Below, piece after piece: positions 18,827 to 22,483 of a stretch of DNA of 64,000 nucleotides. Origin of the DNA: an uncultured Eubacterium sp. (GTDB lineage: Bacteria; Bacillota; Clostridia; Lachnospirales; Lachnospiraceae); NCBI GenBank assembly GCA_910577295.1, contig CAJTLS010000015.1:823-64822 (forward strand). The letters run 5' to 3'. The notes beneath the pieces were generated by a model. It saw only the letters and a list, made by a program, of their open reading frames with translations, searched no databases and had not been told where the DNA came from. The first letter of the stretch is position 1; each line of letters opens with the position of its first letter. Position numbers and translations under genes: made by a program.

Positions 18827-19960
18827 ATGGAAATTTATATTGTACAGACAGGGGATACAATAGATACCATTGCTGAAAACTATGGAGTGTCGGTTGAATC
18901 AATTTCCTATATTAATCAGATTCCGTTTCCATATGCACTGGCAATCGGTCAGGCTGTTTTGATTGACAGAGGGGACGAGACAGCGCCGACGAGAGAGGTG
19001 CAGGCGAACGGATATGCGTATCCGTATATCAGTCCTTGGGTGCTCTCGCAGACGCTGCCATATTTGAGTGCGCTCCTCGTCTTCTCTTATGGCTTTACAA
19101 CCGAGGGGGAGCTGCTTCCACCTGCGGTATCGGATGAGAATATGCGGGAAGCGGCTGCGCAGGCAGGGCGTGACAGTGTTTTGACATTGACGCCGTTTGG
19201 TCCGGATGGGCAGTTTAACAATAATCTGATTCATCAGATGTTAATCAGTTCTTCTGCCAGAGAGCGTCTGATGGATGAACTTTTGGCAACGATGCCGACG
19301 AAAGGGTTTGCCGGCGTCGATGTGGATTTTGAATATATTTTGGCAGAGGATAGGGATTTATTTACGTCTTTTGTGGCAGAGCTGCGCCGGAGAATGAATG
19401 AAAACGGATATCGCGTAAGTGTTGCGCTTGCGCCGAAAACATCCGCAAATCAATCGGGGCTATTATATGAGGGAAAAGATTATCGGGGACTTGGTGAGGC
19501 GGCGAACGAAGTGCTGCTGATGACGTATGAGTGGGGATACAAATATGGCCCCAATATGGCTGTGGCGCCAATCAATAAAGTGCGTCAGGTTGTGGAATAT
19601 GCATTGACAGAAATTCCGTCCGAAAAGATATTACTCGGCATACCAAATTATGGATATGATTGGATTCTGCCATTTATACGAGGGGAGAGCGAGGCGGTGA
19701 CAATAGGCAATGTTGAGGCTGTGCAAATCGCCATTGCCAATGATGCACAAATCCGTTTTGATGAACTATCGCAATCACCGTTTTTTAATTATGAAAGGGA
19801 TGGTGTTTTGCACGAAGTATGGTTTGAGGATGTGAGAAGTTTGCAGAGTAAATATAATTTATTGGAAGAATACAATTTGCGGGGAATAGGCGTGTGGCAG
19901 ATTATGCGTCTTCAGCGGGCTATGTGGCTGCTGCTGGAAAGCAGATTTACGATTCGCTAA
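18827..19960 (+). CDS. LysM plus GH18-like spore cortex-lytic type hydrolase (YaaH/SleL-like)
   Basis: N-terminal LysM (YIVQTGDTIDTIAENYGVSVESISYINQI) and the GH18 motif GVDVDFEY. Confidence 0.75.
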   Translation: MEIYIVQTGDTIDTIAENYGVSVESISYINQIPFPYALAIGQAVLIDRGDETAPTREVQANGYAYPYISPWVLSQTLPYLSALLVFSYGFTTEGELLPPAVSDENMREAAAQAGRDSVLTLTPFGPDGQFNNNLIHQMLISSSARERLMDELLATMPTKGFAGVDVDFEYILAEDRDLFTSFVAELRRRMNENGYRVSVALAPKTSANQSGLLYEGKDYRGLGEAANEVLLMTYEWGYKYGPNMAVAPINKVRQVVEYALTEIPSEKILLGIPNYGYDWILPFIRGESEAVTIGNVEAVQIAIANDAQIRFDELSQSPFFNYERDGVLHEVWFEDVRSLQSKYNLLEEYNLRGIGVWQIMRLQRAMWLLLESRFTIR

Positions 19961-19980
19961 CAGATAATGAAAAAATAAAC

Positions 19981-20021
19981 GGGGAACTGCGGACTTTGAA
20001 AGCTTTGTCGCGCAGTTCCCC
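19981..20021. terminator. Bidirectional terminator between convergent genes
   Basis: GGGGAACTGCG / CGCAGTTCCCC stem flanked by A- and T-runs. Confidence 0.65.
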
Positions 20022-20044
20022 ATTGGTTTTTCTATGAAAAATGG

Positions 20045-22039
20045 TTATTTTTCATTGCGATACTGGATTGGCGTCATGTCATATAATTTGCGGAATGTCC
20101 GGCTGAAATGCTCTACTGTCTGATAGCCGACGGAGAGAGCGATGTTTTCCACCGTCATATTTCCATTTTTGAGAAGCGTTCTCGCCTTTTTCATTCGTAT
20201 ATTCGTCAGATGTTCGCCAAATGTCTTTCCCGATTTTTCGCGGATATATTTGCTGATATACGGTTCGCTCAGATGAAACTGTGCCGCCATATCCGAAAGC
20301 GTTATCATCTGATAATTGGCCTGCATAAAATTAATCATGCCCATCAGGCGTTCGTCTTTACAGACCTCGTTTTTTTTTATATCCGGCAGCTTATTGACGC
20401 ATACGCAAAGTGCATGAATGGATGCCTTGATAATATCCTCGTCGATGCCAACGCCCCAGAAAATTTCACCGTTACAGGTGATATTGACATATGCGATTGC
20501 CTTTGAGGAAGAGCCTTGTGTGAGGGAATGTTCCTCATAATTTGACAATTGATAGCTAATGCCAAAGTATTGCTTAATCGTATTACTGACAGCGTCGAGA
20601 CGTCCGTTACCGTTGGCGTCTACTACTGTTTTTTTGTCGCCGCAGACAATCGTTGTCTCTGCCATAATGCCATCGACCTGTTTGAAATGGCACTCGCTAA
20701 TCTGGAAATACGGAGTAGGCGTAATATAATGCTCTTCAAAGATTTCATAAACCCATTGAGGGGAGAGCTCTTTGTGCTCTTCGTCGGACACATGCTTCAT
20801 CAGATAACCCACTTCTTCGCGCATGGCATCGGGAAGAGAAATGCCGAAGTTTTGCTTTAATATATAATTGACGCCGCCTTTTCCTGACTGGCTGTTAATG
20901 CGTATGACATCGCTGTCATACGTCCGTCCTACATCTTTCGGGTCAACCGGCAGATATGGTACGCTCCAAATGTTAAGCTTCTTATCTTCACGCCACTGCA
21001 TTCCCTTGGCAATCGCGTCCTGATGAGAGCCGGAAAAAGCGGTAAATACCAAATCCCCGGCGTATGGCTGCCGCTCATAAACATGCATACCCGTAAAGTT
21101 TTCGTAGTTGGCGCGGATTTTTGGCATATTGGAAAAATCTAATTCAGGGTCTACGCCATGTGTGAACATATTCATTGCCAGAGTGACGATATCTACATTT
21201 CCGGTGCGCTCGCCATTGCCAAACAGCGTTCCCTCAATGCGCTCTGCCCCGGCCAGTACACCGAGTTCGGCGGTGGCAACGCCGCTTCCACGGTCGTTGT
21301 GCGGGTGCAGGCAAAGCGTAACGGCGTCACGGTATTTCAAGTGCTTGTGAATGTATTCCACCTGTGTGGCAAAAACATGCGGCATGGCATTTTCAACCGT
21401 AGATGGAATATTGATAATCGCTTTGTTGTCAGCTGTTGGCTTCCATACATCCAGAACGGCGTTACAGACATCGACGGCATAATCCACTTCCGTACCCGGA
21501 AAACTTTCAGGACTGTACTGGAAAGAAAAACTTCCGTCCGTCTCGTCCGCTAATTCCTTTAAAAGGATGGCGCCGTCAACGGCAATCTGCTTAATCTCTT
21601 CTTTACTCTTTTTAAATACCTGCTCGCGCTGGGCTACTGATGTGGAATTGTACAGATGGATGACAGCGTGCGGCGCACCTTTTACCGCCTCAAAAGTTTT
21701 TTTGATGATGTGCTCGCGTGCCTGTGTCAGCACCTGAACCGTTACATCCTGCGGTATCATATCCCGCTCAATCAGCGTGCGCATAAATTCGTATTCCGTT
21801 TCGGACGCAGCGGGAAAGCCTACCTCTATTTCCTTAAACCCAATATCTACTAACATCTGGAAAAACTGAACTTTCTCTTCCAGTCCCATCGGCTCTATCA
21901 GAGCCTGATTCCCATCTCTTAAGTCAACCGAGCACCAAATCGGCGCCTTGTCAATCGTATCCTTTTTCACCCAGTCATAGGTGCATTCAGGCGGCATAAA
22001 ATATGCCTTTTCATACTTTTCAAAGTTTTTCATAATCAT
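20045..22039 (-). CDS. leuA: 2-isopropylmalate synthase (long form with LeuA regulatory domain) fused in frame to a C-terminal AraC-type HTH domain
   Basis: [19 protein letters not shown] and a LeuA dimer/regulatory region up to ...[10 protein letters not shown]. The last ~100 aa, [33 protein letters not shown]...[25 protein letters not shown], are an AraC HTH pair. Confidence 0.85.
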
Positions 22040-22044
22040 ACCTC

Positions 22045-22372
22045 CGTTTTTGCACAGTCTGTTGTGCGTTATAAAGATAATCGGTCTGAACGATAAAAAA
22101 ACTCCCGCTCCACAACCGATGCGGTTGTAGAGACGAAAGTATACTTTCGCGGTACCACTCTACTTCGTGTCATCAGACACGCTCTCGCAGGCACTGACAT
22201 GCCTTTCCCAAATAACGGTGGGGAACCGATGTGAACTACTGGGAAACACGCGGTTTCCGTTGGAACACATAGCTCAGAGGTGAGTTCGCGATATCTCTTC
22301 TGCTGCCTCGCACCAACCGACAACTCTCTGTGAGAAGATGAACCGTTACTATTCCTCGTCACTGCTTTTACT
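22045..22372 (-). promoter_or_regulatory. T-box riboswitch leader, Leu (CUC) specifier
   Basis: The minus strand reads AGAGUGGUACCGCG (T-box sequence, + coordinates 22148-22161), GAA-CUC-A in the specifier loop (CUC at 22282-22284), an AGAGA box, and a terminator stem plus U-run before leuA. Confidence 0.8.
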
Positions 22373-22483
22373 GTTTTTATATCATATCACAAAAGATGCG
22401 CTTTGGGAATGATTAAATTTAATCATTATTATTGATTTATTTTTTACATAAGTCAAATAGGGAAAACTTTCCAAAATAAATGC

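Follow-up and report, generated by a model that had tools for sequence, protein, structure and literature searches.

What is a complete DNA-binding domain doing at the end of a leucine biosynthesis enzyme? The question is raised by a gene in a 64,000-nt stretch of contig CAJTLS010000015.1 (assembly GCA_910577295.1), from an uncultured Eubacterium sp. of the Lachnospiraceae; this whole stretch is hereafter termed the window, and all coordinates refer to it. The gene encodes a 2-isopropylmalate synthase (LeuA) that runs on, in frame, into an AraC/XylS-type domain with two helix-turn-helix (HTH) units, and a conserved putative operator lies at its promoter. The reading favoured here, to which we assign a probability of roughly 60% for the model as a whole, is that the fused protein acts as an autoregulating, leucine-sensing trigger enzyme.

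The open reading frame (ORF) occupies 20045..22039 on the minus strand and comprises 664 residues, as stated in the original prediction, which was made from the sequence alone. The protein itself, however, is more likely to start at the second ATG (22033; MKNFEKY...) and thus to have 662 residues, because a GGAGG sequence lies 7 nt upstream of this codon and the N termini of orthologues (MKN..KY) agree with it. The gene and its parts are as follows.

20045..22033, minus strand: coding sequence of the LeuA-HTH fusion (ATG at 22031-22033, Shine-Dalgarno sequence GGAGG at 22041-22045, stop codon at 20045-20047).
21113..21943, minus strand: catalytic TIM barrel (HMGL-like; Pfam, 236 bits), with DLRDGNQ, HPHNDRG, and GERTGN intact.
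20387..20767, minus strand: LeuA allosteric/dimerisation domain (LeuA_dimer, PF08502; 87.9 bits), which contains a 10-residue ligand loop.
20354..20386, minus strand: linker of 11 residues, holding a run of nine A at 20370-20378; the predicted local distance difference test score (pLDDT) of the structural model is below 50 at residues 556-559.
20051..20353, minus strand: complete AraC/XylS-type DNA-binding domain of seven helices with two HTH units (HTH_18, HTH_AraC, structural model).

Along the 664-residue ORF, Pfam places HMGL-like at residues 33-309, IPMS_D2 at 329-395, LeuA_dimer at 425-551, and HTH_18 at 584-662. HTH_18 scores 76.6 bits against a cut-off of 33.6, and HTH_AraC 45.4 bits against 26.6. 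The NCBIfam profile for 2-isopropylmalate synthase, PRK03739, matches residues 7-550 over positions 3-550 of its 550 at 795.5 bits (cut-off 455), and TIGR00970 reaches 653 bits, under its equivalog cut-off of 697. The catalytic and metal-binding motifs DLRDGNQ, the HxH within HPHNDRG, GERTGN, and SGSHQD are all present, here as well as in 67 full-length fused proteins from other loci considered below. Pfam and PRK03739 together bear out the initial description of a complete long-form LeuA joined in frame to a two-HTH AraC-type domain. Domain searches of the fusion ORF also agree with its statement that an AraC-type sensor domain is missing, and there is no stop between the LeuA and HTH parts. 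The module ahead of the HTH is LeuA with its allosteric domain, which corresponds to no known type of AraC sensor and, judging from solved LeuA structures, would dimerise.

Structural comparison gives the same division. The top matches in the PDB are Mycobacterium tuberculosis LeuA entries 3HPS, 3FIG, and 1SR9, at 43% identity over approximately 565 aligned columns, and sequence matches to the HTH part include the DNA-binding domains of YesN, GadX, SoxS, and XylR. The AlphaFold monomer model has a mean pLDDT of 76, with a confident barrel and a low-confidence middle section (residues 321-386). These are followed by a regulatory domain at 440-547, modelled as two beta-beta-beta-alpha units (pLDDT 81-91), a dip in confidence at 556-559, and a seven-helix domain at 561-661 (pLDDT 77-92). 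An internal start (MGMINF...) that would yield a free HTH protein is unlikely: no Shine-Dalgarno sequence lies upstream of it, and its methionine falls inside the conserved first helix (M-[IM]-N-[FY]) of orthologues.

Could the join nevertheless be an assembly or homopolymer artefact, or a recent and functionless deletion chimera? The frame at the LeuA/HTH junction hinges on the length of the nine-A run, where the gain or loss of a single A would bring LeuA to a stop within 4-8 codons, and in one relative (G004) the run has 10 A and the gene is split, which reflects either an assembly error or real inactivation. This explanation is, however, extremely improbable. Contigs assembled independently from four public runs (two from mouse gut in 2014, one from manure in 2025, and one labelled organism in 2024) cross 20250-20500 with zero indels and agree on the length of the run. 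A metatranscriptome contig from a related strain extends from past the stop codon through the HTH and the junction into LeuA; its A-run is three bases longer (A12), and the frame is kept. The full ORF, with zero stops, is found in 12 species of the genus, and the A-run stands at the junction in only four of these loci (the window copy and three other species). The remaining eight species have unrelated junction codons and no homopolymer, yet the same frame. Since the fusion also recurs in hundreds of species and its HTH is under purifying selection (see below), an artefact is ruled out and the fusion is genuine. The check for an assembly error or frameshift that the original prediction called for leaves the fusion standing, with four independent assemblies and one metatranscriptome contig in frame, and its alternative of a local deletion joining leuA to a downstream araC-family gene is not supported. 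As a separate matter, a long A-run could permit slippage of RNA polymerase, from which some LeuA lacking the HTH would result.

The fusion is widespread. When one genome per species is scanned with an alignment of the HTH part, at least 571 species genomes prove to encode this HTH type. The best 80 loci, which are the top matches of that scan, have the HTH fused to LeuA wherever a contig end does not cut the locus; 67 of the proteins are full-length, at 661-715 residues with DLRDGNQ, HPHND, and GERTGN intact, and a stop or frameshift seems to interrupt about four. These loci include Roseburia hominis, R. faecis, R. porci, Eubacterium ramulus, Agathobacter, Butyrivibrio, and Lachnobacterium. 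All 120 of the best protein clusters (81%-93% identity) show the same five Pfam domains within approximately 661-665 residues, and one cluster holds 960 member sequences on 666 contigs. The architecture is thus fused in hundreds of species, and orthologues are not uniformly encoded as two separate genes. Nonsynonymous divergence (dN) against same-genus orthologues is 0.04-0.15 for the LeuA part and 0.11-0.31 for the linker plus HTH, with synonymous divergence (dS) saturated; by this comparison, both parts are under purifying selection. In a maximum-likelihood tree with 25 unfused long-form LeuA sequences, the HTH-fused sequences all fall on one side of a branch with support of 100/99, which fits a single, old origin of the fused forms.

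In the window's genome, which is 99.8% complete, no second LeuA-like sequence was found, and the fusion is the sole LeuA. The window lies on contig C15 of this genome, whereas leuB-ilvD-ilvB-serC-serA is on C7 and leuC-leuD on C20; the gene therefore stands alone without leuBCD nearby, as had been noted. Within the genus, the fused LeuA and an ordinary 564-residue LeuA (approximately 50% identity) are mutually exclusive except in one genome. As the sole LeuA of its genome, and given this mutual exclusion, the fused protein is therefore the housekeeping synthase. It is probably an active synthase subject to leucine feedback inhibition, a view for which its position as sole LeuA alongside leuB and leuCD provides indirect support. 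The exceptional genome (G023) carries both a fused LeuA (88% identity) and an ordinary 571-residue LeuA (49% identity), and no match to the operator described below lies upstream of its ordinary leuA.

The element ATTAAAAaAaATCAAT-AAAAa-TGATTAAATTTAATCATT stands upstream of every fused gene examined and in the window occupies 22408-22446, adjoining the predicted promoter.

22409..22426, no strand assigned: proximal operator unit, a perfect 18-bp palindrome ATGATTAAATTTAATCAT that overlaps the -35 by one base.
22431..22446, minus strand: distal operator unit TAAAAAATAAATCAAT (family consensus ATTAAA-N4-ATCAAT), which starts 23 bp upstream of the proximal unit.
22381..22409, minus strand: promoter (promoter scan), with -35 TTCCCA at 22404-22409, a 17-nt spacer, TG at 22388-22389, and -10 TATGAT at 22381-22386.

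The consensus of 68 loci consists of two 16-bp units, ATTAAA-N4-ATCAWT, with starts 23 bp apart and high information content, followed at a fixed distance by a conserved TG-extended -10. The operator precedes 68 of 69 fused genes, and 49 of 66 loci have the distal unit at a fixed offset. The -35 of the window gene begins at the last base of the palindrome, and transcription is predicted to start near 22374, at the 5′ end of a T-box leader. An alternative promoter (TTGACT-17-AATAAT, 22428-22456), which would place the palindrome at the transcript start, was rejected: the 68-locus consensus conserves the TG-extended -10 downstream of the operator but not this match.

Within its genome, moreover, the site is unique. 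A weight-matrix scan of the 2.7-Mb genome gives 30.5 bits for the site at the gene's own promoter and 18 for the runner-up, so that the former is the sole strong site. The runner-up, CTGCATAAAATTAATCAT at 20321-20338, lies inside the gene itself at the MINFMQ codons that begin the HTH domain; it is probably a chance match, arising from those codons in DNA that is not conserved in orthologues. Among 41 relatives scanned, matches to the palindrome with zero or one mismatch occur in fusion-bearing genomes only, and all adjoin the fused gene except two (in G015 and G018), which lie at an oxidoreductase operon. Perfect matches are found in 11 fusion-bearing relatives, each time adjoining the fused gene, and in none of approximately 27 genomes without the fusion; relatives without it have two-mismatch matches or none. 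In eight named genomes, the best match is at the fused gene in six, and the operators of the other two are variants, so that these genomes give no match within two mismatches. Conserved neighbouring genes were not found at the fused loci, where the best family reaches 15 of 81, and hence nothing but the fused HTH accompanies the site throughout. Of 48 fused genes lacking the T-box, 8 (R. faecis-like) carry a third, inverted copy of the distal unit, GTTGATATATTTTAAT, in the leader, downstream of the -10 and approximately 56 bp downstream of the proximal unit. Such sites flanking the promoter suggest looping or repression in the species concerned.

Between this promoter and the start codon, the window gene carries the T-box leader.

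22126..22371, minus strand: T-box leader (Rfam RF00230, full model) with specifier GAA-CUC-A, the CUC (Leu) codon lying at 22282-22284.
22095..22140, minus strand: T-box terminator, with a hairpin at 22101-22140 and a U-run at 22095-22101 (-24.9 kcal/mol, z = -7.2, RNA fold).

The match to RF00230 scores 129.2 bits against a gathering threshold of 93 (E = 3e-29) and upholds the Leu T-box with GAA-CUC-A specifier that had been proposed. The window's genome has seven T-boxes, of which that of the fusion gene is alone in being located at a leucine or branched-chain gene. As a general control of the fused gene, the T-box can be rejected, since no more than about 18 of 66 loci have one; in Roseburia, Agathobacter, and Butyrivibrio, a short leader takes its place. 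The T-box is thus a lineage-specific second layer, and the window gene has operator and T-box in series.

Which part of the enzyme would do the sensing? An exhaustive search of representative proteins recovers divergent fused relatives at 37%-52% identity, and these differ in how much of the enzyme they retain. The catalytic motifs are kept in P0121, whereas DLRDGNQ, HxH, and GERTGN are destroyed in P0126, P0128, P0133, P0218, and P0262; in P0214 and P0252 most of the barrel is gone, leaving essentially LeuA_dimer plus HTH. Identity of these relatives to the window protein rises from 27%-44% in the barrel to 41%-58% in the regulatory domain and 53%-65% in the HTH. The corresponding values for ordinary unfused LeuA are 56%-60% for the barrel and 28%-37% for the regulatory domain, the HTH being absent. 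The 10-residue ligand loop is kept across all fused forms, including those that are catalytically dead. The regulatory domain and HTH have been selected as a unit in this family, because the divergent relatives keep both while the catalytic motifs or the barrel are lost. For the same reason, the regulatory domain, retained with its ligand loop and the HTH where the barrel is dead, is the most plausible sensing module; its known ligand, in solved LeuA (3FIG), is leucine.

Several of these relatives have features of their own. A related operator, TGGATATATTAATCC, stands at the promoter of P0126, which precedes a sodium-pump-type decarboxylase operon, and P0252 lies 23 nt after a pyruvate:ferredoxin oxidoreductase gene. 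No common neighbourhood of the catalytically dead relatives emerged among the loci looked up. P0138, a LeuA relative of 1116 residues, has four LeuA_dimer repeats after a normal catalytic part.

These observations can be assembled into a mechanism in which an active long-form synthase, its leucine-binding regulatory domain, and the AraC-type domain together constitute a bifunctional trigger enzyme. The LeuA dimer would present two DNA-binding domains in the manner of an AraC dimer, because long-form LeuA is a homodimer with paired regulatory domains, as in M. tuberculosis LeuA. These two domains would sit on the two 16-bp repeats that end at the gene's own -35, and the state of the enzyme would thereby set leuA transcription. 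Autoregulation is proposed because the operator has one constant partner, the HTH of the gene that it precedes, which is a classical mark of a self-controlled gene. The signal would most likely be leucine, bound by the regulatory domain, in which case one sensor would serve both feedback inhibition and transcriptional feedback. Activation is favoured over repression, because the sites, at about -36 to -76 and touching a weak -35, match the position used by AraC-family activators: low leucine would lead to activation, and binding of leucine to its loss. In this lineage, the Leu T-box downstream of the promoter would add a second check by way of uncharged tRNA-Leu. It is inferred that the fused domain binds the operator and that leucine is the effector, and so is the direction in which control would run. 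The original prediction's reading as an enzyme-regulator chimera, with the LeuA allosteric domain as sensor, gains support from the single origin, the purifying selection, the spread of the fusion, and the modules kept in divergent relatives.

A second target may exist. A por/vor-type 2-oxoacid:ferredoxin oxidoreductase operon in G015 and G018, whose gamma subunit matches the pyruvate/2-ketoisovalerate family TIGR02175, has a copy of the palindrome with one mismatch just before its -35; the element there reads ATGAATAAATTTAATCAT. The orthologous operon in the window's genome is on contig C13 and has a weaker site, ATGAAAAGATTTAATCAT, just upstream of a -35 TTTACA (approximately 59,960-60,010 of C13, outside the window). 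The two-unit element is present at this operon in nine close fusion-bearing genomes, and the promoter there is a different one in ten genomes of the genus that have no fusion; the element is also missing from four fusion carriers that are more distant, and common descent confounds the comparison. The operon, which might supply 2-ketoisovalerate, is a candidate second target and is to be taken as a lead only. It would be about an even bet that a single protein serves as enzyme, leucine sensor, and transcription factor of its own gene, the LeuA allosteric feedback domain having become the module through which an AraC-type regulator senses its ligand and dimerises, with the family preserving a series from active through dead full-length forms to truncated LeuA_dimer plus HTH, and with a regulon that may reach this oxidoreductase operon.

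Several observations weigh against the autoregulatory trigger-enzyme model. The structural model is that of a monomer, with a predicted template modelling score (pTM) of 0.52, and does not give the placement of the DNA-binding domain on a dimer. A metatranscriptome contig of a related strain covers 22096-22466 and therefore extends across the operator, about 90 nt beyond the predicted transcript start; this upstream coverage may be read as DNA carry-over, an upstream promoter, or read-through. The site is absent from the leuB-ilvD-ilvB and leuCD promoters of the window's genome, and hence control of the pathway, if any, would run only via leuA, perhaps also via the 2-oxoacid oxidoreductase operon. 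Among the catalytically dead relatives examined, the AT-rich operator is likewise absent, with the exception of the related version before P0126. That operator and fusion occur together is in part confounded by common descent. A palindromic 18-mer, moreover, is commoner for simple dimeric HTH repressors than for AraC-type domains, and an unlinked regulator could therefore own the operator.

In that event, the operator would belong to an unlinked transcription factor, such as a small dimeric HTH repressor, and the fused HTH would have other targets or no specific ones. The perfect 18-bp palindrome is typical of symmetric dimeric repressors; however, sites with zero or one mismatch are absent from same-genus genomes without the fusion, no neighbouring regulator gene is conserved, and the layout of two units with 23-bp spacing adjoining the -35 fits AraC-type sites. 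As the site is unique in the genome, the one-gene regulon of a separate regulator would also have to coincide with the gene that carries an orphan HTH, and ownership by an unlinked factor is accordingly considered quite improbable. Autoregulation could also operate with a different signal, namely, a substrate or product at the active site (2-ketoisovalerate, acetyl-CoA, or 2-isopropylmalate), as in classical trigger enzymes. In its favour, each of the 67 full-length fused proteins from the best 80 loci retains an intact catalytic domain, a related site precedes the pyruvate/2-ketoisovalerate-family oxidoreductase operon, and yeast Leu3 has the LeuA product 2-isopropylmalate as its inducer. Relatives without catalytic residues or without the barrel nevertheless keep the regulatory domain and ligand loop beside the HTH, which makes an active-site signal unlikely, if still worth entertaining. 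Leucine acting through the regulatory domain is thus the signal preferred here.

Each component of the proposed system has known counterparts. M. tuberculosis LeuA (1SR9; leucine-bound 3FIG) has the same TIM barrel, linker subdomains, and C-terminal regulatory domain at 43% identity, and in its structure the regulatory domain binds leucine and pairs within the dimer. The window protein differs in adding approximately 110 residues of linker and AraC-type domain after the regulatory domain, and in its ligand loop, which departs from GNGP(I/L)DAF. AraC/XylS activators (AraC, RhaS, XylS, MelR) share the C-terminal two-HTH domain of approximately 100 residues behind a dimerising, ligand-binding module. 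Their operators also resemble the candidate site, which comprises two units of approximately 16 bp about two helical turns apart, with the proximal one touching the -35. At AraC, XylS, and RhaS sites, the units are likewise direct, and each has two sub-sites approximately 10 bp (one helical turn) apart. Here, however, a whole metabolic enzyme with its allosteric domain stands in place of a cupin or periplasmic-binding-protein-like domain as the sensor and dimerisation module, the units are spaced at 23 bp and not 21 bp, the proximal unit is palindromic, and binding is predicted.

The trigger enzymes PutA, BirA, NadR, and Ada similarly combine enzyme and transcription factor in one polypeptide and control their own pathway or gene according to metabolite state. 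PutA is a proline dehydrogenase with a ribbon-helix-helix domain, BirA a biotin ligase with an HTH, and Ada a methyltransferase with an AraC-type HTH; Ada thus provides a precedent for the fusion of this HTH type to a catalytic protein. The LeuA fusion differs from these four in its enzyme and pathway, and in that its proposed signal enters via a pre-existing allosteric feedback domain. As for the leader, the ilv-leu T-box of Bacillus subtilis has the same CUC specifier and terminator/antiterminator before a leucine biosynthesis gene, whereas that of the window controls a monocistronic leuA, downstream of an operator-controlled promoter.

Long-form LeuA, the AraC-type domain, the T-box, and fused trigger enzymes are already known, and it is the conserved leuA operator, which the original prediction did not mention, that is new here. 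A literature search returned neither a LeuA-HTH protein nor its operator, no report of LeuA_dimer as the sensor of a transcription factor, and no fused trigger enzyme from leucine biosynthesis; public annotation describes the fused proteins only as "2-isopropylmalate synthase". In major butyrate producers among the gut and rumen Lachnospiraceae (Roseburia, Agathobacter, Butyrivibrio, and Eubacterium ramulus), LeuA takes this fused form as standard. If the trigger-enzyme model is true, amino-acid feedback in these bacteria would run through one protein and one sensor with two outputs, catalysis and transcription, and the sensor domain of a transcription factor would be seen to arise from the allosteric domain of an enzyme. 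The pseudoenzyme and truncated relatives form a natural series for the evolution of a regulator from an enzyme, and the pair of operator and protein could be used as a leucine-responsive switch for Clostridia.

Downstream of the gene lies one further feature of the window.

19970..20024, minus strand: intrinsic terminator 3′ of the gene, with a hairpin at 19978-20024 and a U-run (-28.1 kcal/mol, z = -7.2, RNA fold).

This terminator is common to the fusion gene and a convergent gene at 18827-19960. At one relative locus (L082, 3080-3243), a TwoAYGGAY RNA motif (RF01731, 89.7 bits) was detected approximately 0.8 kb upstream of the fused gene and is unrelated to the fusion or its operator.

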